DNA from: Candidatus Hermodarchaeota archaeon
Lineage (GTDB): Archaea > Asgardarchaeota > Lokiarchaeia > Sigyniarchaeales > SOKP01
Direction: 5' to 3'
Length of the DNA stretch: 13,382 nt
NCBI GenBank assembly: GCA_048885535.1
Contig: JBHLLO010000080.1
Location: 1-13,382 of the forward strand
The notes beneath the pieces are model-generated. The model was given only the letters and a program-made list of their open reading frames with translations, made no database searches and was not told the DNA's origin. A program made the translations under genes and the position numbers. Shown piece by piece: positions 1,152 to 13,382 of this stretch. The stretch's first letter is position 1; each line of letters begins with the position of its first letter.

Positions 1152-3044
1152 TTATTCGATTACACCAATTTTTCTTAATTGATTAACTAAAACTTGGCTT
1201 TGTTTATAGTAATAAGTTGAGTTATTACTATCTTTAGCTAACATATCAAAAAAATCACACATTAATAAATTCCATCTTATAGCTCTCTTTATTCCCGGTA
1301 TTTCCTTTACATAAACAGCTAATCGACTTTCAACACCCTTAAGCAGAAATAAAGCTTTTCTTGAATCAACACGGTGATGAATGTAAAATTCAGCTAGCTC
1401 TAATATGAGATCATAAAAAATATGTTCATACTTCTTATCTTCAAAATCTAATCCAACAGCATCAATTCCAGATCTTAATAATTTCTGGGCTTGAGATAAA
1501 TTCCCAAAATTCTTATAATATTTTGCTCGAAGAAGATAATAATTTAATTTAACTTTGATAGAATTGGTAGTCAATTGAAAAGCCTTTTTAAGAAAAACTT
1601 TTGATTGAGTAATTTGACTTTGGGATAAATAAATCAAACCTATATGAAGATATGACATTCCGAGAAAATCTTCTGTGTTGATTGAATGTTCTTCCTCTTT
1701 TTCTAAGAATTTAATCATAATTTCGAAATGTTTCATCGCATTAACAAAATCTTGTCTGTTAAAATACCATTTTCCTAATTTATAGTGTATTGCTATAATA
1801 TATTGGATGGGTACTTCTCCTGATTTTGCTACTGCGAGAGCATTCTGCAAATAATTAAGAGCAATCTCTTCACGGTTTAGTAATGAAGCAATCTTTCTTA
1901 GTTTAAGTAGAATTGAAACAACTATTTTCCTTTGACGATTTTTGTTAAATACTTTTAAAGATTTATTGAGTAAATCTGTTGCTTCATCAAAGTGATAGTT
2001 CTTTATTAGTTCTTCTGCTTCGGTATATGTAATCAGAGACTCAATGGTTTCAAAGTTAACAGGTGGTGAATTTAAAAGATCATTATGAATAGGATATAAT
2101 TCTGATTTTGAGATTAGGCTTTCATAGTGAAGTGGAGAAAAAGGAAAGTTATGTTGTTCTAACTCAAAATCGGTGTTATCTAAATCTCTTGTAGGTCTTA
2201 AATTTAAAAAATCATTTTGAACAATTTCTCCTAAACTGATTATTTCTATCACAGAATTTAATAGCGTTCTAGAAAACTTTATCCAATTGCCTATAGCTTC
2301 ATTCAATTTAAAATCAGATTCATTAAATAAATTAAGCATTATATATGGAGTGTAGCAATCAAAAAAGGAACGAATGTAGAATTTATTGTACTCTAAATCT
2401 TTAAGGTAAGTAAAGAATCCTTTTTCTAAAATGAAGAATTCATCAAATTTCTCATCATTCGAAAAGAAGAGCGTCTCAGAAGCTCTAAGCTTTGGAACAC
2501 CTCTTCCCAATTCCCAAGGCAATTTGAATGTTGGGTGCAATCCAGTACTTTTTATTATCTTTACAAAATCTGCTACATAGGAATTGTCAAATTCATTAAA
2601 CTTTTCTCGTTTATTGAATAAAGATATCCTTATTCGATTTATTCTAGAATTCTCGTTTTCATCTTTTATTGGATCTGGCATTAAAATATTTAACAAATCG
2701 AGTAAATCGCTTTCTTTCCCTTTAATTGGAAAGTTGTGTTCTATGGAAACTCGCATAGCGAGATCTCTGAGCATTCTCATAACATAAAAAATAGTATTAT
2801 TAGTGCCTTGATTTAGATCCCAAAATTTAAATGCGATAGAGACTCTAAAAGTGACTACTTCAAAAGGTACATTAATTCGTATTGGTAAAAAGACTGGTAG
2901 TTTTATAGTAAATAACAAAGTTTTTTCCTTATTAATACTGTATCTAAAATAGTTTTTAGTATACCCATAGATTTGCCATCCGTTCTTTTCTATGGCAGTT
3001 CTCAGATTTGATAGTTCATTATTAGAAAGGGGACGAATTGACAT
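1152..3044 (-). CDS. Large protein with C-terminal tetratricopeptide-repeat (TPR) region; N-terminal half unassigned
   Basis: 630-aa ORF. TPR-like helix pairs from ~aa 335, e.g. IHYKLGKWYFNRQDFVNAMKHFE, SYLHIGLIYLSQSQITQSKVFLKKAFQL, YYLLRAKYYKNFGNLSQAQKLLRSG. Confidence 0.75.
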   Translation of the reverse strand: MSIRPLSNNELSNLRTAIEKNGWQIYGYTKNYFRYSINKEKTLLFTIKLPVFLPIRINVPFEVVTFRVSIAFKFWDLNQGTNNTIFYVMRMLRDLAMRVSIEHNFPIKGKESDLLDLLNILMPDPIKDENENSRINRIRISLFNKREKFNEFDNSYVADFVKIIKSTGLHPTFKLPWELGRGVPKLRASETLFFSNDEKFDEFFILEKGFFTYLKDLEYNKFYIRSFFDCYTPYIMLNLFNESDFKLNEAIGNWIKFSRTLLNSVIEIISLGEIVQNDFLNLRPTRDLDNTDFELEQHNFPFSPLHYESLISKSELYPIHNDLLNSPPVNFETIESLITYTEAEELIKNYHFDEATDLLNKSLKVFNKNRQRKIVVSILLKLRKIASLLNREEIALNYLQNALAVAKSGEVPIQYIIAIHYKLGKWYFNRQDFVNAMKHFEIMIKFLEKEEEHSINTEDFLGMSYLHIGLIYLSQSQITQSKVFLKKAFQLTTNSIKVKLNYYLLRAKYYKNFGNLSQAQKLLRSGIDAVGLDFEDKKYEHIFYDLILELAEFYIHHRVDSRKALFLLKGVESRLAVYVKEIPGIKRAIRWNLLMCDFFDMLAKDSNNSTYYYKQSQVLVNQLRKIGVIE

Positions 3045-4692: not shown

Positions 4693-6366
4693 ATGTCTAA
4701 AAAATCATTAATTATATCTGTGATATTACTCGCTATTGGCTCAGGTTTAGTTCCTACAGGAGTTTTACTTGAAGATTATATAAATGAGATGGTTATTAAT
4801 TCTCTTGACGAGGGTCTTTTAGGAATAGAAGAAGAGGCGATTCCTTTAATTGAACCAATGATAAAAGAGAAGGGAATCCCTCAAACACTTAGAGGCATCA
4901 GAGATTTGGGAATTCCTATTCTTGAAGATATGGTAGAAGTGACCTTCGTAGCGGTATTAATTAATACATTTGTTAATACAGGGGGAGTTGTGTTTAGCAC
5001 ATTCTTTCCTCCTATAGGTAGAGAAAGTTTCTTTAATAATGACACAACAGGAGTTTGGGTTATTTTTAGCGGTATTTCCACCTATCACGGGGTCCCACTT
5101 AACTTTACAGAGGATGCTCAAAATAGGATATTGTACGGTAATAGCACAACAATCCCGGGTTATATCTCTGGTATTCAAGGCCTTCTCAACGATACTTCGA
5201 CAGGTGAGGGTGTAGCGAACTTTTTAGCTCAATTTTCTGCCGCCAATTCAAGTGGGACTGATAAATTAAATGAAACTATGCAAGAGAATTATAACTGTAC
5301 ATGGTATCAATTAACTAAATTAAATGAATATATTAGTGCTTATCTTATAGACCTTGTAATACCGATAATAATTGCCAATAACTTACATGTGGATTATATG
5401 CCACAATTAGCAGGGCTACTTTCGGTTAATGCTATTGCCAAAGCATTATTCATGGAACAATGGGCAAATGGAACTGTTCTAAACGAGACTCTCTATGAAG
5501 GAGGGATCGATTTTAGTGAAATGCTTGAGAATGTAAATGAAACTTTAGTTGGGTTTGAAGTGGGGCGTATTAATCCTTCAAATATAACCCGAAAATCAGC
5601 TTATGCATTATTCAATGAAATAGATTATCCTAATGCCATAACAAATGACAGTGGAATTGAACAGTGGGTTAATGCATCTAAAAATGATACGATAAAAATA
5701 TCTTTAATGAATGAATTTAATCTTACTCTATCTCAAATAGATATGATCCTTTTTTGGTTATTCGAAGAATCATTTCAGGATAATATTGTTCCTGAACTTA
5801 TGAAACTTCCTCCTCCAGATGGTGTTGGTATGAATATTACTGAATATGCAAGAGTTCTATTTTTGGAACAGTGGACAAATGGAACGGTAGTAGGTGAAAT
5901 TATTTATCCTTATGGATTTCCGCTCCCATTAAAAGCTGCTACCATCTATGGGTTTGAAATTGGGTATGTCGATCAATCTCACCCTGTGATACCTTCCAAT
6001 ATATCTTTAGTATCAGCAGAGTCTCTATGGGACGTCACAAATCCCTTTTCATTGGTAAACAGTAATGGTTTAAAAGAGTGGTATGATGCATTAGCCAATC
6101 CTAATTCTGCTGGTGCTTATGGATTACAAGTGGCAAATAAGCTTAATAAAGATCAAATAGCCATGATATTCGCTTGGTTACCAAAATTTAGGGATAACGT
6201 TATGCCTTTTCTTGCACAAGAAGACCAAAATCTTCCCAGTGATTCAACATCATTTGCTAATTCAATAGAGCTTGGAATGATTATTCCAGGTGGAATTTTG
6301 ATTGGAATTGGTTTAGTAGGTATAGTGAGTAAAATTTACCTTAGAAGGAAGGAAAATATAATCTAA
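4693..6366 (+). CDS. Two-TM cell-surface glycoprotein with internal ~137-aa repeats (paralog A)
   Basis: 557 aa. N-terminal and C-terminal hydrophobic helices with short basic tails; about 18 N-x-S/T sequons by hand count. Repeated motif EQW[AT]NGT...GFE[VI]G...P[ST]NI[ST]...G[IL]xxW...QIxMIxxWL. Confidence 0.8.
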   Translation: MSKKSLIISVILLAIGSGLVPTGVLLEDYINEMVINSLDEGLLGIEEEAIPLIEPMIKEKGIPQTLRGIRDLGIPILEDMVEVTFVAVLINTFVNTGGVVFSTFFPPIGRESFFNNDTTGVWVIFSGISTYHGVPLNFTEDAQNRILYGNSTTIPGYISGIQGLLNDTSTGEGVANFLAQFSAANSSGTDKLNETMQENYNCTWYQLTKLNEYISAYLIDLVIPIIIANNLHVDYMPQLAGLLSVNAIAKALFMEQWANGTVLNETLYEGGIDFSEMLENVNETLVGFEVGRINPSNITRKSAYALFNEIDYPNAITNDSGIEQWVNASKNDTIKISLMNEFNLTLSQIDMILFWLFEESFQDNIVPELMKLPPPDGVGMNITEYARVLFLEQWTNGTVVGEIIYPYGFPLPLKAATIYGFEIGYVDQSHPVIPSNISLVSAESLWDVTNPFSLVNSNGLKEWYDALANPNSAGAYGLQVANKLNKDQIAMIFAWLPKFRDNVMPFLAQEDQNLPSDSTSFANSIELGMIIPGGILIGIGLVGIVSKIYLRRKENII

Positions 6367-6392: not shown

Positions 6393-8033
6393 ATGTCAAA
6401 ACGAATTGTAATTGCATCAGTTCTGTTGGTTGTAATGGGCTCTGGTCTAATTACTGGTGGTATCTTAATTAAAGATTATATTAATGAACAAGTCGTTAAT
6501 TCTGTTGATGAGGGTTTATTGGGGATCGAAGAGGAAGCCTTACCGATGATTGAATCAATGATAGCAGAATTAGGTATACCTAGAACACTTAGGGATATTA
6601 GAAAGATTGGATTAACAGAAACCGAAGCAATAGTTAATGCAACTTTCTTTATGTTTCTAATTAATATGACTTTACATGAGCCATCTGTATTAGGGGTTGT
6701 CCCTTTAGAGCTATTATTTGATCGTTGGATTCAATGGGTATTAATTATTCCTGTTACTTACAGTTCATCTCTGCAAGGAATGGGTTATCCTCCCATTAAA
6801 GGGATTTCAGAATACCATCAACAAAATCTTTGGTATGGAAATGCTAAATATTTTTTGATCAATGGAGCGGATACACTTCCAGGTTTAGTGGGTAATAATA
6901 CATTAGGTACGGGTGTTTTAGAATTTCTTGAATTATATGATAATGCAAATGGAAATCCAATTTTAGAACAAGAGCTTGCTGTTGGTTATAATACGACTTG
7001 GATTAAACTTACTAAATTAATTGAATATTATAGAGATTATTTTGTTCCTATAGCAATCCCAATGTTAGTAGCAAATTTATCTACAATTATGCCAAAATAT
7101 TCTGGGATGAATACAAAGGACATCGCAGAGATGTTTTTCTTTATGCAATGGGCAAACTGTTCTTTATTTGAAACAGGTATAGATCTGAGCTCAATGGTAG
7201 ACGATTTGGAGGAACCACTTTATGGATTTGAAGTTAGCAGATTTAATCCTTCGAATATCACACTCAGTTCGATTTACTCACTCTGGGATGATAATGACAT
7301 AAAGGCAATCACCAATGACACTGGAATTAATGAATGGATAATTGCTATCAACAATATAACAAAACAACAAGAGTTAGGGGAGTATTTTCGTTTACAACCC
7401 TACCAAATAAGTATGTTGTTAAATTGGTTATGGGTAGAGTCATTTAAATGGAATATTGTCCCTGTACTTATATTACTTCCACCTCCGCTTGGAGAGGGAA
7501 TGACTTTATCGGAATTTGCTAGAAATATTTTTTTAGAAGTTTGGACCAATGGAACGGCTGATGGTAAACGCTTATATCCATATGGCTTTCCGCTCAAATT
7601 AAAAGCAGGTACAATATATGGATTCGAAATTGGTTATAGAGATCAATCTCATCCAGTTATACCCACTAATATATCATTAGAATCTGCAAAGTCTCTTTGG
7701 AATTTCTCAAATCCATATTCATTGGTAAGCAGTATCGGTTTAAAAGATTGGTATTATGCTTTAGATAATCCTAATTCTGCTATTACTTACGGCCTGCAGT
7801 TAGCAAATCAACTTACTTCTAATCAAATAAAAATGATCTTTGTATGGTTACCAAAATTTCGGGATAACATCATGCCATTCCTTGCACAAGAGGATCAAAA
7901 TTTACCGATGGACTCAACGACCTTAGGAAATGTGATAATGATTGGAACTATAGTTCCTGGAGGTATTTTAATTTCGCTCTCTATTACTGCTATAAGTAGA
8001 AATTTAGGCAAGAAAAGAAGATTAAAAACGTAA
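6393..8033 (+). CDS. Two-TM cell-surface glycoprotein with internal repeats (paralog B, tandem duplicate)
   Basis: 546 aa, colinear with 4693-6366 (shared DEGLLGIEEEA, YPYGFPL, DQSHPVIP, WLPKFRDN, FLAQEDQNLP). About 12 sequons; 26-nt gap suggests an operon. Confidence 0.8.
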   Translation: MSKRIVIASVLLVVMGSGLITGGILIKDYINEQVVNSVDEGLLGIEEEALPMIESMIAELGIPRTLRDIRKIGLTETEAIVNATFFMFLINMTLHEPSVLGVVPLELLFDRWIQWVLIIPVTYSSSLQGMGYPPIKGISEYHQQNLWYGNAKYFLINGADTLPGLVGNNTLGTGVLEFLELYDNANGNPILEQELAVGYNTTWIKLTKLIEYYRDYFVPIAIPMLVANLSTIMPKYSGMNTKDIAEMFFFMQWANCSLFETGIDLSSMVDDLEEPLYGFEVSRFNPSNITLSSIYSLWDDNDIKAITNDTGINEWIIAINNITKQQELGEYFRLQPYQISMLLNWLWVESFKWNIVPVLILLPPPLGEGMTLSEFARNIFLEVWTNGTADGKRLYPYGFPLKLKAGTIYGFEIGYRDQSHPVIPTNISLESAKSLWNFSNPYSLVSSIGLKDWYYALDNPNSAITYGLQLANQLTSNQIKMIFVWLPKFRDNIMPFLAQEDQNLPMDSTTLGNVIMIGTIVPGGILISLSITAISRNLGKKRRLKT

Positions 8034-10112: not shown

Positions 10113-10901
10113 ATGGAATTTGAAATTTTAGTTATAGGAAATGAAATTCTAATTGGAAAAACTCAAGACACAAATTCAAATTGGATGGCTAAAAGAATTG
10201 CAAAGTATGGACATAAATTAAAAAGAATAACTACTATTGGAGATGATATAAATGAGATATCATCATTTTTGATTAAAATCTTAAAACGAAAGCCAGATAT
10301 AATCATTACCTCTGGAGGACTTGGACCAACCTGGGATGATAGAACTTTAGAAGGTGTAGCTAAAGCATTGAATAAAAAACTTGAGTTAAATCAACATGCT
10401 TATAACTCAATAAAGAAAGCCTATGAGCATGCTTATCATAGAGGTCTTTTAAGATTAGAAGGAATGACTAAAGAAAGAGAAAAGATGGCTTATCTTCCTC
10501 AAGGATCGACACCCTTGCCGAATACAGTTGGTACTGCTCCAGGGGTTAAGTTAACCAAGGAAAATGTTAAACTTTTTATATTACCTGGTGTTCCAGCTGA
10601 AATGAAAGCAATGTTTAGAAACATTATAACACCAATGTTAAAAGAAAAACAAGGTAAATTTGTTGAGCAGAGTTTTCTCATTTCTAGAATTGGAGAGAGC
10701 CAAATTGCTCCTTATATCACCAAATTAGAAGAAAAATATCCGCAACTTTGGATAAAAACTCATCCTAGAATAGGATTATCTGTAGAAGTAGAGATTTCTA
10801 TTACCTGTTTCGATGTGGAGAATGGAGAGGAATTAGTTAATAAAGCTTTAAATGAAGCTAAAGAAATAGTTTTGAATTTGAATGGCATAATAAAACAATA
10901 A
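10113..10901 (+). CDS. cinA: CinA N-terminal / MoCF-biosynthesis-like domain protein (COG1058; competence/damage-inducible protein A-like, probable nucleotide pyrophosphatase)
   Basis: Motifs IGNEILIGKTQDTNSNW, TIGDD, SGGLGPTWDDRT, NTVGTAPG, LPGVPAEMKAMF and GESQIAP. No C-terminal PncC deamidase domain. Confidence 0.88.
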   Translation: MEFEILVIGNEILIGKTQDTNSNWMAKRIAKYGHKLKRITTIGDDINEISSFLIKILKRKPDIIITSGGLGPTWDDRTLEGVAKALNKKLELNQHAYNSIKKAYEHAYHRGLLRLEGMTKEREKMAYLPQGSTPLPNTVGTAPGVKLTKENVKLFILPGVPAEMKAMFRNIITPMLKEKQGKFVEQSFLISRIGESQIAPYITKLEEKYPQLWIKTHPRIGLSVEVEISITCFDVENGEELVNKALNEAKEIVLNLNGIIKQ

Positions 10902-10915
10902 TAATTTAAATTTCT

Positions 10916-10989
10916 AGATGCCACCTCGCATGTGGAATTCTCAATAAACTCTCACCATAAAGGTGTTTAGGTTTATATCACTGACATCT
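10916..10989 (-). ncRNA. Eukaryote-like SECIS element (cis-acting) in the selD 3' UTR
   Basis: Minus strand reads AGAUGUCA-GUGAU-AUAAAC-CU-AAA-CACC-UUUAU-GGUG-AG-A-GUUUAU-UGAG-AAUUCCACAUGCGAGG-UGGCAUCU. This gives an RUGAN/NGAN non-Watson-Crick core, helix II, unpaired AAA, an apical mini-stem and a closing helix I. Confidence 0.88.
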
Positions 10990-12018
10990 TTATAAATTTT
11001 GTATTTCAATATTTTCTATGTTTTCATCAACCCTAACAATTCCAGGTTTCAAAGAATCAATGGTTCCAATAATCCAATTCTTAATCCCTCTACTATAAAG
11101 TGTATTAGAAAATTCTTCTGTTTTAACAGGATCAATCACCATCAACATACCTCCCGCGGTCTCATGACAGGCACAACTATCAAAAGCATAACCTAATTCA
11201 GTTGAGAGCTCCTTTGATAGTTTTATAGAAGGAACTTTTTCTAGAATCGCTGATAAATTAGAATTTTGTAATAATTCCTTAGTATGACCCGCCAATCCAA
11301 AACCAGTGACGTCAGACATAGCATGTATGAAAGAGAAATCTTTGTAAGAATGTATAGTCTTTACTACATTTTGGTTTGACGTGGTCATAATTTCAATAGC
11401 AAAGTTTATAGATTTCTTTAACTCAACTTCTGAATATTGTTCCAACATTTCAGGGAAATCTTTTAAAATTCTGTATGCTGCCATTATTGCCTGAATTCCT
11501 ATTGGTTTTGTAAGGATTAATTTATCTCCATCTCTAACGCCTTGCTTTTTAATAATCAAATTCCTTTGGATATAACCAGACGCTTCTCCACCTATTAATG
11601 GATCCTGAGTATATATAGTATGTCCACCGACTATTTTAGAATTAATTTTGTTCTCCATAAAGTTTTTAATCCCTATAAGTATTCTTTCCGCAATATTCAT
11701 AGGCATATTAGTATTTATCCCTAGAAAAACTAACATCCCCGAAATTTCAGGCACATTCATCGCAAAAATATCGTTTGTCACATTGCATGCTGCAATTTCA
11801 CCTTGAATTTCTGGTTCATCTACGATTGGGGTGAAGATATCCAAATTTTTCACTAGAACTAAATCACTATCAGGTATCGGTAATACAGCAGCGTCCTCAA
11901 AGTCTCCAAGTATTCCTGCTTTCCGCAATAAATCTTCTAGACTATTTGGACCAAGTTTACATGATCAACCGTGTATTTTAACTTGTGAAGTAAGTCTATA
12001 CTCTTTCTTTTTTTCCAT
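10990..12018 (-). CDS. selD: Selenide, water dikinase (selenophosphate synthetase), selenocysteine-containing (Sec18)
   Basis: From ATG 12018: MEKKKEYRLTSQVKIHG-TGA(11965-11967)-SCKLGPNSLEDLLRKAG..., in frame with the 10990-11928 ORF (342 aa total). SelD motifs DIFTPIVDEP, GGHT, LILTKPIG, DVTGFGLAGH and ETAGGML are present. Confidence 0.96.
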
Positions 12019-12021
12019 ATC

Positions 12022-12028
12022 TCACCTC
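12022..12028 (-). promoter_or_regulatory. Shine-Dalgarno site of selD
   Basis: Minus strand GAGGTGA-GAT-ATG is a strong archaeal SD directly before ATG 12018. Confidence 0.85.
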
Positions 12029-12080
12029 GATGTCTTTTTTAATTTAGAGTAATTTTATTGTTTTTGTATAATCAACAAAC

Positions 12081-12200: not shown

Positions 12201-13382
12201 TTAGGGTAAGAGGAGATCAATTTTCTTTGTTGTTTTGCGAGTGATATCGAACGGATCTCTATAATACAGATTAAGCTTAATCTCATCTACAGTTGGATCT
12301 GCTAGGTTTTTCTCAATATTCCTGTCGATTTTAACAACATAATTAAATTTAAATACACTCCCAGACTTCAACTCACTAAGATACAAGTAGCTTGGAAAAC
12401 TCTCTTTCATAATAAACGTGAGATATGAAGGTATTTTCAACGAAATCTGGATTTCTCGAAATTCGAAATTTGTAGGGTTGTTTAATTTAAAATTTAAATA
12501 CATTTTATTACCTATTGTTTTTATATTTTTGAAAAAGAGTAGATCTTTAGCTTCAATAATATCATCTTCAAGTCGAGGTGAGTAGAGGTTTTCATTTATT
12601 ATTTTTGCATTTAGTTTTCCTTTATGAATGAAGTTTAAGATAATCTCTTTTAAATACTCAACTTCTAATTCTAAGTATGAGGCAAGGCTTTCTAAATTTA
12701 TTGGATTAATTACTTCTAAATAATATTTAATTTGGCTCAAATAAATTTTGCTATAACCCTTTTCTGAGAAGTTTTTAGATTTATTAATAAGTAATTCTTT
12801 TGCTGATACAAATTTAGTAATAAATGGTCTAATATATAAATTAAAAATGTCATTTCTCTCTTCAGCGACTTTACCAATTATATTGTCAATTTGAGCTTCA
12901 TAATCTTCGATAAAGTTTTGTATTTGCCTTGAATTCATTTCAATAAGTTTCTTTGCATCACGAAATTCACTCTTTTGAATAAGTGTATTTAATTTTAAAT
13001 TCAGTTTATCAAACCCATCATTAAATTTTTTAAAACCTTCGATGCCTTGGGTTATTATCGATTGAATATGCCCTTGAAATAATTGAAATCCTAATTCATT
13101 TTTGATTCCATTAACTTTTAATTCCTGTTTATCTTCTTTGGTCGTTTCTACGAAATAATTTACTATTTTGTCTTTTATTTGTTTTATTTTCTTATCTAAT
13201 TCACTTAAAAACTCTTGAATCTGGATTTTTGATTCAACCCATCTCCTTACTAAATCTTTAAATATCTCATTAAATTCTACATTATTTACTAAAATGTCTC
13301 TAATTTCATCATCAAGTCTAAATAGATAATTTCTTAATTGCGTAATTTGAGTGAGACCCTCTTCTATTTCTTTATCTTGGGT
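12201..13382 (-). CDS. 5'-truncated large helical/coiled-coil protein with PCI-like winged helix and C-terminal Ig-like beta-sandwich
   Basis: The frame is open from the window edge (148 extra codons upstream of 12938, no stop). PCI-like segment INPINLESLASYLELEVEYLKEIILNFIHKGKLNAKII, then a beta-rich tail (MYLNFKLNNPTNFEFREIQISLKIP...IKLNLYYRD). Confidence 0.75.
   Translation of the reverse strand, partial: TQDKEIEEGLTQITQLRNYLFRLDDEIRDILVNNVEFNEIFKDLVRRWVESKIQIQEFLSELDKKIKQIKDKIVNYFVETTKEDKQELKVNGIKNELGFQLFQGHIQSIITQGIEGFKKFNDGFDKLNLKLNTLIQKSEFRDAKKLIEMNSRQIQNFIEDYEAQIDNIIGKVAEERNDIFNLYIRPFITKFVSAKELLINKSKNFSEKGYSKIYLSQIKYYLEVINPINLESLASYLELEVEYLKEIILNFIHKGKLNAKIINENLYSPRLEDDIIEAKDLLFFKNIKTIGNKMYLNFKLNNPTNFEFREIQISLKIPSYLTFIMKESFPSYLYLSELKSGSVFKFNYVVKIDRNIEKNLADPTVDEIKLNLYYRDPFDITRKTTKKIDLLLP

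Follow-up and report, generated by a model that had tools for sequence, protein, structure and literature searches.

The closest described counterparts of the locus analysed here are the selenophosphate synthetase (SelD, SPS) genes of other Asgard archaea. The text of Mariotti et al. 2016 (PMC4989117) deduces a Loki-like SPS that carries a single in-frame UGA at its selenocysteine (Sec) position. The SECIS of this gene, the SPS lokiSECIS, is described as distinct, with a main stem of reduced length and a further stem at the apex, "resembling a eukaryotic type II SECIS"; according to the same text, the existing SECIS tools found nothing in the Loki genes. In the text of Huang et al. 2024 (PMC11227280), SelD is reported to be a selenoprotein in 87.2% of the Sec-using Asgard archaea, and the group is described as having SECIS elements mainly of type II, variants with GUGA_GA, selD genes that are frequently doubled, and no SBP2. 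The same picture is given in the text of a 2026 review (PMC13188914). A Sec-containing SelD with a type II-like SECIS in Lokiarchaeota and other Asgard archaea is already known, having been published in 2016 and 2024. The gene described here is a further example of the Sec system of Asgard archaea, under study as the bridge between archaeal and eukaryotic Sec decoding, and leaves this picture unchanged. Two by-products of the analysis may be new, namely an extra 3' hairpin in the SECIS and a protein family with a tandem UGA-UGA.

Our selD gene shares with the Loki and Asgard SelD genes described in these texts (PMC4989117, PMC11227280) the single UGA at the homologous site and a 3'-UTR element directly past the stop codon. 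The elements themselves are alike in the kink-turn-like [A/G]UGA...GA core, the unpaired adenines, the short main stem and the apical ministem. The present gene differs in its GUGA core, which in the text of Huang et al. 2024 is mainly a feature of Thorarchaeia selD, and in being the only selD of its assembly, whereas in its genus 13 of 24 genomes have two Sec-selD genes side by side. With the SelD of Methanococcales and Methanopyrus (model PRK14105) it has in common the archaeal origin, Sec at the identical site and a SECIS in the 3'-UTR. PRK14105 was the best-scoring model over the full length of the product (271.8 bits, positions 2-344 of 345), but the score stays below the cut-off of 291; the match comes from a diverged Asgard branch. 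Euryarchaeal SECIS elements are described with a GAA_A bulge and GC-rich stems (text of PMC11227280), whereas our element is predicted to be of the kink-turn type.

Eukaryotic SPS2 genes and type II SECIS elements resemble our locus in that SelD/SPS is itself a selenoprotein and in the AUGA/GUGA...GA quartet, the AAR motif and the apical ministem. In contrast to them, our element has an upper stem of only 6 Watson-Crick pairs, an extra hairpin on the 3' side and no Rfam match, and the text of PMC11227280 reports Asgard genomes to be without SBP2. The bacterial Sec-SelD of Aquifex aeolicus (2yye/2zod) has the Sec/Cys-x-x-Lys loop in common with our product. Different from the bacterial system are the location of our element, about 1 kb downstream of the UGA, and a machinery of the PSTK, SepSecS and aSelB kind. 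In bacteria the SECIS follows the UGA immediately and is part of the coding sequence, and the system works with SelA and with a SelB that has winged-helix domains.

The window, i.e. the whole stretch of 13,382 nucleotides that was analysed, is an entire 13.4-kb contig (C80) of an assembly comprising 3.09 Mb in 112 contigs with 30% G+C and an estimated completeness of 91.6%. Read directly from the minus strand, the selD frame extends from ATG 12018-12016 to TAA 10992-10990 and contains a single in-frame TGA at 11967-11965, which is codon 18. Reading this TGA as U yields a product of 342 aa whose only U is residue 18 (context ...VKIHG-U-S-C-K-L-G). The first-pass annotation had described this frame by its ATG, a GAGGTGA Shine-Dalgarno motif, the TGA and an internal TTG at 11928, and every coordinate was right on re-reading. 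The last three bases of GAGGTGA (12024-12022) themselves form an in-frame TGA; therefore the selD frame has no start further upstream. Between 12018 and the TGA at 11967-11965, ATG, GTG and TTG are otherwise absent. The upstream translations of relatives ("EVKM", "RCM") suggest a similar purine-rich stretch in front of their start codons, as far as can be deduced at the protein level. Taken as sequence alone, the 17-codon open stretch 5' of the TGA is insignificant, and its weight comes from conservation.

The mechanical ORF list offers only 10990..11928, a frame of 312 aa that starts with TTG. It had been anticipated that standard annotation would give a SelD lacking its active site, and in addition to this ORF all five of the shorter homologues that were fetched (303-321 aa), three of which are NCBI records named SelD, begin downstream of the site. 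The problem for annotation is genuine, though already known: SelD is cut short by standard gene calling and loses its active site, also in the public records of relatives. The features of the locus are compiled in Table 1.

Table 1. Coordinates of the selD gene and its 3'-UTR element in the window (paired strands are given 5' strand with 3' strand)
Feature	Position	Strand	Remarks
selD / selenophosphate synthetase CDS	10990..12018	-	342 codons + stop, one Sec codon
GAGGTGA Shine-Dalgarno-like motif	12022..12028	-	3 nt 5' of ATG; putative ribosome-binding role
UGA codon 18, predicted catalytic Sec	11965..11967	-	conservation, structure-chain alignment, run contigs
AAA codon 21, Lys of Sec-x-x-Lys	11956..11958	-	sequence and alignment to solved chains
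Internal TTG picked by the ORF caller, not the real start	11926..11928	-	ORF list; truncated annotations of homologues
SECIS element in the 3'-UTR, three-way, 72 nt	10917..10988	-	starts 2 nt past the stop; covariation and covariance model
Lower stem	10988-10985 with 10920-10917	-	4 pairs: 2 invariant, 1 one-sided change, 1 two-sided
Core 5' side, GUGA	10978..10981	-	UGA invariant in 50/50
Upper stem	10976-10971 with 10949-10944 (span 10944..10976)	-	4/6 pairs changed on both sides
AAAC bulge	10968-10965	-	invariant
Ministem	10965-10963 with 10955-10953	-	2/3 pairs changed on both sides; fourth pair in the window
Core 3' side, GA	10941..10942	-	A invariant, G in at least 90%
Extra hairpin H4	10921..10935 (10935-10931 with 10925-10921)	-	3' of the core GA, 5' of the second lower-stem strand; 5/5 pairs covary

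Judged by its sequence, the readthrough product is a selenophosphate synthetase SelD. Alignment to the SelD families, which had been proposed as a check, gave 193.1 bits with the NCBIfam model TIGR00476 (selD) against a cut-off of 125, and the architecture of the PurM superfamily was recovered by Pfam with AIRS (44 bits) spanning residues 41-148 and AIRS_C (55 bits) spanning residues 162-322. The top matches among solved structures were human SPS1 (E 1.3e-35), the SPS of Leishmania (5l16) and the SelD of Aquifex aeolicus (2yye/2zod). In the alignments, U18 pairs with the Cys of "GCSCKL" in 5l16 and of "GCAAKVGP" in 2yye, in agreement with the earlier assignment of the TGA to the catalytic position of the Cys/Sec-x-x-Lys motif. 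The Gly-rich N-terminal loop, G17-U18-S19-C20-K21, lies opposite "GCSCK" (5l16) and "GCAAK" (2yye). Its counterparts in E. coli SelD are the motif residues that we take to be numbered C17, C19 and K20. The role of the Lys in the Sec-x-x-Lys motif is part of the established biochemistry of SelD.

Conservation of the UGA codon was assessed in two sets of genomes. A locus scan with one genome per species yielded 57 loci, 55 from archaea and 2 from Lachnospiraceae. The aligned codon was TGA in all 54 Asgard loci that cover the site; the remaining one of the 55, L068, ends at a contig edge before reaching it. The two Lachnospiraceae loci (L072, L073) also have an in-frame stop at the homologous site. 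In a search of 40 related genomes, exactly one TGA was found in each of the 50 SelD-level matches covering residue 18, which came from 37 of these genomes. A SelD-level match was absent in three of the 40, which are 63-82% complete, and the only two strong matches without a TGA were fragments starting at residues 169 and 224. The relatives keeping the TGA are at 39-89% identity. The flanks of the codon are conserved as well, with YRLT..VKI[H/F/Y]G among the 17 residues before it and [S/N]CKL after it. An in-frame UGA opposite the Cys or Sec of homologues, with coding conservation on both sides, is what is expected of a selenoprotein gene. Among 16 database homologues that were fetched, all 11 full-length ones, from metagenomes, show W at the site, i.e. 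the gene caller translated through the TGA.

It had also been suggested to compare the TGA with sequencing runs. Contigs of four public runs span 11965-11967 with no listed difference and agree with the TGA; among them are records with 0 differences that span 11500-12001, 11753-12080 and 11593-12001. These are Logan contigs, and all four runs belong to one study and may include the source sample, so that their support cannot be counted as independent. Among named SelD relatives, the closest come from MAGs labelled Promethearchaeota/Promethearchaeia, with some labelled Thor-, Hermod-, Hod- or Odinarchaeota. The source of the window is an Asgard archaeon of the Promethearchaeota/Lokiarchaeia (Loki) group.

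The 3'-UTRs of 56 selD genes, from the window and the 55 loci, were compared. Of these, 50 carry a common element that starts 1-10 nt past the stop codon, 5 carry a type I element (L039, L042, L051, L053, L057) and one carries a variant (L061, AGGA replacing AUGA); these six were omitted from the alignment. In the 50 sequences the element is made up of four helices with 18 pairs, 12 of which show compensatory changes on both sides, and RNAalifold alone predicted the identical 18 pairs. Paired cells amount to 98.0%, compared with 90.9 +/- 0.4 in shuffled alignments (none of 500 shuffles reached the observed value), and sliding the 3' partners by 1-3 columns left at most 52.4% of the cells paired. 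A covariance model (R1) built from 43 loci, without the window and its six nearest relatives, gave a single match in the window, at 10915-10990 on the minus strand (78.5 bits, E 2.4e-17), and one match at the same place in the whole 3.09-Mb genome. Both the covariation and this model place downstream of selD, in its predicted mRNA, the SECIS that a selenoprotein gene requires. Contigs from related strains show variants at four positions inside the element (10937, 10943, 10950 and 10951), and none of these belongs to a paired column.

Directly 5' of the core UGA, 42 of the 50 sequences have A, 5 have U and 3, among them the window, have G; the five nearest relatives have a UUGA core. By analogy with kink-turns, the GA of the GUGA would form tandem sheared G.A pairs, a non-Watson-Crick pairing, with the 3' GA, and the core would probably adopt a kink-turn geometry. 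The type II criteria of Huang et al. 2024 comprise a core 5'-GA_[G/A]A-3', an upper stem of 7-15 bp with up to 2 mismatches, a bulge of 4-12 nt, a ministem of 2-8 bp and an apical loop of 2-6 nt. Our element has a GA...GA core, an upper stem of 7 (6 Watson-Crick pairs plus U.U beside the core) with one mismatch, the bulge CUAAA, a ministem of 3-4 bp and a loop of 5 nt, and belongs to the type II eSECIS-like elements of Asgard archaea. The SECIS families of Rfam gave no match in the whole window (E up to 1) or in 10880-12060 (E up to 10), in agreement with the failure of SECIS tools on the Loki genes stated in the text of PMC4989117. The sole Rfam row in 10880-12060, snoR66 at E 7, was discarded as a chance match. 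Folding of the single 3'-UTR sequence was insignificant (z -1.77, 11 of 200 shuffles as good) and its MFE structure differs from the consensus; we relied on the comparative analysis and set the single-sequence fold aside.

A search of the genome for Sec machinery supported the earlier view that this organism has a working Sec system. The tRNA-Sec gene reached 61.2 bits against an Rfam gathering score of 47, and ARAGORN likewise classified it as SeC with anticodon TCA. It is adjoined by a SepSecS gene (486 bits, cut-off 224.85), beside which lies a member of the Asgard-specific family NF045535, named "putative selenocysteine system protein" (227.1 bits, cut-off 132). On the contig shared with SepSecS, a SelB-like GTPase was found at C73:13796-15232, with 231.8 bits for TIGR00475, below the cut-off of 242.25, and with the Pfam domain aSelB_III. 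Another contig encodes a PSTK-like kinase whose score for TIGR03574, 166.6 bits, is below the cut-off of 290.5. Despite these scores, TIGR00475 and TIGR03574 are the best family matches of their respective proteins. Each of the four components, tRNA-Sec, PSTK, SepSecS and SelB/EFSec, is represented in the genome, the first and third above the respective cut-offs and PSTK and SelB below.

We regard it as highly probable that the gene is the single selD of an Asgard archaeon and that its UGA 18 is recoded as Sec via a eukaryote-like SECIS in the 3'-UTR. Translation would start at ATG 12018, and the ribosome would insert Sec at UGA 18 instead of terminating. The Sec-tRNA(Sec) would be formed by the archaeal/eukaryotic route from SerRS via PSTK to SepSecS, with selenophosphate as a substrate of the latter, and would be delivered to UGA 18 by an archaeal factor of the SelB/EFSec type. 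The recoding signal would be the type II-like SECIS about 1 kb downstream of the UGA. The Sec would occupy the N-terminal Gly-rich loop at the catalytic position of SelD, in Sec-x-x-Lys. The gene, its conserved UGA, the covarying RNA structure and the machinery genes are present in the data; from them we infer actual Sec insertion, a SECIS-reading protein and feedback behaviour. Points of caution are the scores below cut-off for PSTK, SelB and PRK14105, an A.G mismatch in the extra hairpin, and the GUGA core, compared with AUGA in 42 of the 50 sequences.

The full-length SelD would make the selenophosphate needed for its own Sec, and its synthesis would depend on its own product because a Cys paralogue is absent from the assembled genome, in which a search with the SelD protein found a single selD. 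Within the assembled 91.6% of the genome, the loop postulated in the first-pass annotation stands, in which selenium is required to make the selenium-donor enzyme itself. A Cys-type selD may be located in the missing part.

The UGA might be read as Cys, Trp or Gly rather than Sec, either by near-cognate decoding or by a reassignment throughout the lineage. Gene callers working on short contigs did enter W at the site, and low-level insertion of Cys at Sec codons is known in other systems. This reading is improbable, since the Sec-specific machinery is complete in the genome, a conserved SECIS lies beside the gene and the codon falls on the catalytic Cys/Sec position of SelD proteins. Furthermore, UGA still appears as a stop codon in the clade: of 55 selD homologues, one has a terminal TGA at the position at which TAA or TAG is found in the rest, and TGA ends 194 of the 1279 long stop-to-stop frames of the genome, which is weak evidence.

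Even less probable is that the TGA acts as a true stop, leaving either a pseudogene or a SelD-like protein without the catalytic loop that starts at TTG 11928. Exactly this ORF appears in the ORF list, the public annotations of homologues are similarly truncated, and none of the 15 runs listed with the stretch is an RNA run. However, conservation at the protein level covers the 17 codons before the TGA, and every relative in the two sets (54 of 54 and 50 of 50) retains the TGA, unlike in a decaying pseudogene; moreover, a covarying SECIS follows the gene, and the truncated product would be left without the Sec/Cys-x-x-Lys loop. A sequencing or assembly error for TGT or TGC, for which no supporting point was found, has a negligible probability, since the contigs of four runs cover the codon with no listed difference and independent assemblies of 54 other Asgard genomes carry TGA at it.

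The extra hairpin of the SECIS, designated H4, has an invariant G in its loop, and its innermost pair is the A.G mismatch in the window. The hairpin is enclosed by the lower stem, so that the comparative alignment points to a three-way, k-junction-like SECIS, which may be new. The extra hairpin is not mentioned in the texts consulted (PMC4989117, PMC11227280), whose figures or supplements may show it, and our literature search for three-way-junction SECIS elements in Asgard archaea returned no paper.

The same module recurs in type I elements, namely those of the 5 selD loci and of 6 genes in the present genome, where a lower-stem strand comes after a short hairpin whose loop is YGCRA-like. 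In VhuD genes, a lower stem and a 3' hairpin were found in 46 of 46 cases compared with 28% of shuffled downstream sequences, in a per-sequence scan with loose criteria in which some automatic picks are not the best pairing. RNAalifold on the unrefined MAFFT alignment of the 46 VhuD SECIS regions recovered an 8-bp main stem only and no H4-like hairpin.

We consider it possible, although with the chances against it, that the Asgard SECIS is in general a three-way element whose extra hairpin is the site for a factor replacing SBP2, maybe aSelB or the "selenocysteine system protein" encoded beside SepSecS. On this view, the selD of the window, whose core is GUGA, would serve as a readable example. 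The conserved third SECIS helix would matter for finding the binding factor and may merit the attention of specialists. For the Sel_Asgard protein, encoded on the minus strand at L086:1807-2487, an AlphaFold model with a mean pLDDT of 75.6 was obtained. No Pfam family, fold or function was assigned to it, Foldseek against the PDB found no match at E <= 0.001, and the best Z in the VIA wide structure comparison was 7.2, within the noise range of the tool; an L7Ae-like fold was not seen among these results.

Other selenoprotein genes seem to be encoded in the same genome. Three of 8 VhuD/FlpD-type matches have an in-frame TGA at the Cys positions of their paralogues, and two of these three genes lie downstream of hdrA-like genes, with a type I SECIS after each of the two. 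A pattern search for type I SECIS elements resulted in 10 hits, of which 6 with a 9-bp stem were kept. The other four (C6, C33, C46 and C71), mostly A/T-rich hits with a stem of 8 or 10 bp, were dropped.

An unannotated ORF of 160 aa on contig C58 contains a tandem TGA-TGA in the context D-V-G-C-U-U-E-K-V-K and is followed by a type I SECIS right past its stop codon. No Pfam or NCBIfam family was assigned to this ORF, the protein is absent from the seven Asgard selenoprotein families given in the text of Huang et al. 2024 (PMC11227280), whose figures or supplements may contain further families, and a literature search for tandem-UGA selenoproteins of Asgard archaea found no paper. The tandem TGA and the 35 residues following it are kept in two other genomes (86% and 49% identity). 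Database homologues show WW at the site in all 7 readthrough sequences, and all 11 aligned truncated ones end in ...GC. This family, possibly worth a specialist's time, may represent a candidate new selenoprotein family with adjacent Sec-Sec and, according to the structure model (mean pLDDT 86.6), a ubiquitin-like or sulfur-carrier fold. The nearest solved folds are of the beta-grasp type, with Z values that are borderline by the guidance of the tool (transcobalamin beta domain 8.4, SAMP1 8.1, CysO 7.9, MoaD 7.0-5.4), and CysO aligns with its C-terminal end to the G-C immediately 5' of both Sec codons.

The SECIS elements of this archaeon and its Asgard relatives share a structural detail beyond the core. 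That detail is a small hairpin, capped by a YGCRA-like loop, which occurs both in the type II elements of selD and in the type I elements of VhuD and other genes. As it lies between the core GA and the lower stem, the SECIS takes the form of a three-way junction. In the selD elements the hairpin is supported by strong covariation. For the VhuD elements its sole support is a loose scan, in which it was found in 46 of 46 elements versus 28% of shuffled sequences, and RNAalifold did not recover it there. Coordinates of these and further features are listed in the table.

Features in the window, in contigs of its genome (G000) and in loci of related genomes
Feature	Location	Strand	Remark
Hairpin, YGCRA-like loop	window 10921-10935	minus	between SECIS core GA and lower-stem 3' strand
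Same hairpin	G000 C15:16465, C18:39040, C28:25759, C50:7911, C57:8856, C58:18196		
Same hairpin	L089-L133 (VhuD homologues)		around stop codons
TGA overlapping SECIS core AUGA	~1021-1042 of each locus, L095-L130 (VhuD homologues)		
160-aa ORF, tandem TGA-TGA	G000 C58 ~18205-18687 (= L136:606-1088)	minus	
Type I SECIS	core ~C58:18196		directly 3' of the stop of the 160-aa ORF
226-aa protein, NF045535 match	G000 C73:7306-7986 (= L086:1807-2487)	minus	
Upstream neighbour of selD	window 12201-13382	minus	weak PCI-domain match, 23.9 bits (cut-off 22)
557-aa ORF	window 4693-6366	+	no Pfam family; adjoins 546-aa ORF
546-aa ORF	window 6393-8033	+	no Pfam family; adjoins 557-aa ORF
630-aa protein	window 1152-3044	minus	weak TPR matches

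One of the type I elements follows a 160-aa ORF on contig C58 which contains two adjacent in-frame TGA codons within the motif DVGC-U-U-EKVK and matches no family in Pfam or NCBIfam. Both TGA codons and the tail beyond them are kept in two related loci (L140, 86% identity; L141, 49%). All 7 readthrough homologues in the database carry WW at this site, and the truncated homologues terminate at GC in 11 out of 11 aligned cases. The fold predicted for the ORF (pLDDT 86.6) has as its nearest neighbors beta-grasp sulfur-carrier and ubiquitin-like proteins, namely SAMP1 (Z 8.1), CysO (Z 7.9) and MoaD, with borderline scores; the C-terminus of CysO aligns to the G-C of the motif. Genes for a 91-aa protein, a 2x[4Fe-4S] ferredoxin and a membrane protein are located upstream on the same strand. 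The ORF represents a candidate for a novel selenoprotein family of Asgard archaea in which two Sec residues stand side by side.

In the VhuD homologues two UGAs, at match residues 9 and 60, are present in 45 out of 45 sequences and are read as Sec. The first in-frame stop past the conserved region lies downstream of both and is, in 28 of the 45, a TGA that at the same time supplies the UGA within the AUGA core of the SECIS.

A further protein, encoded on contig C73 directly beside SepSecS and tRNA-Sec, matched NCBIfam NF045535, 'putative selenocysteine system protein', with 227.1 bits; among Asgard MAGs its sequence identity is around 70%. No Pfam family was assigned to it, and the comparison with solved folds gave nothing convincing (top Z 7.2). 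It probably corresponds to the hypothetical protein whose link to Sec genes is mentioned by Huang et al. 2024 (PMC11227280).

The window's genome possesses a single selD only. Among the related genomes (G002-G023), 13 out of 24 same-genus genomes have a pair of selD genes together on a single contig, spaced by about 0.5-1.9 kb, each with some 60% identity to the other's type and with TGA in both copies. The selD SECIS core also varies: UUGA replaces A/GUGA ahead of the upper stem in the five nearest relatives (L018-L021, L071), and the element at L061:4018-4100 has AGGA...GGAG where others have AUGA...UGAG, the selD stop codon of this locus being TGA. The scan that yielded the selD loci also returned two bacterial ones from Lachnospiraceae MAGs (L072 and L073), in which the catalytic position is likewise occupied by an in-frame stop ('GG*ASKIGP'); these would be bacterial Sec-SelD genes.
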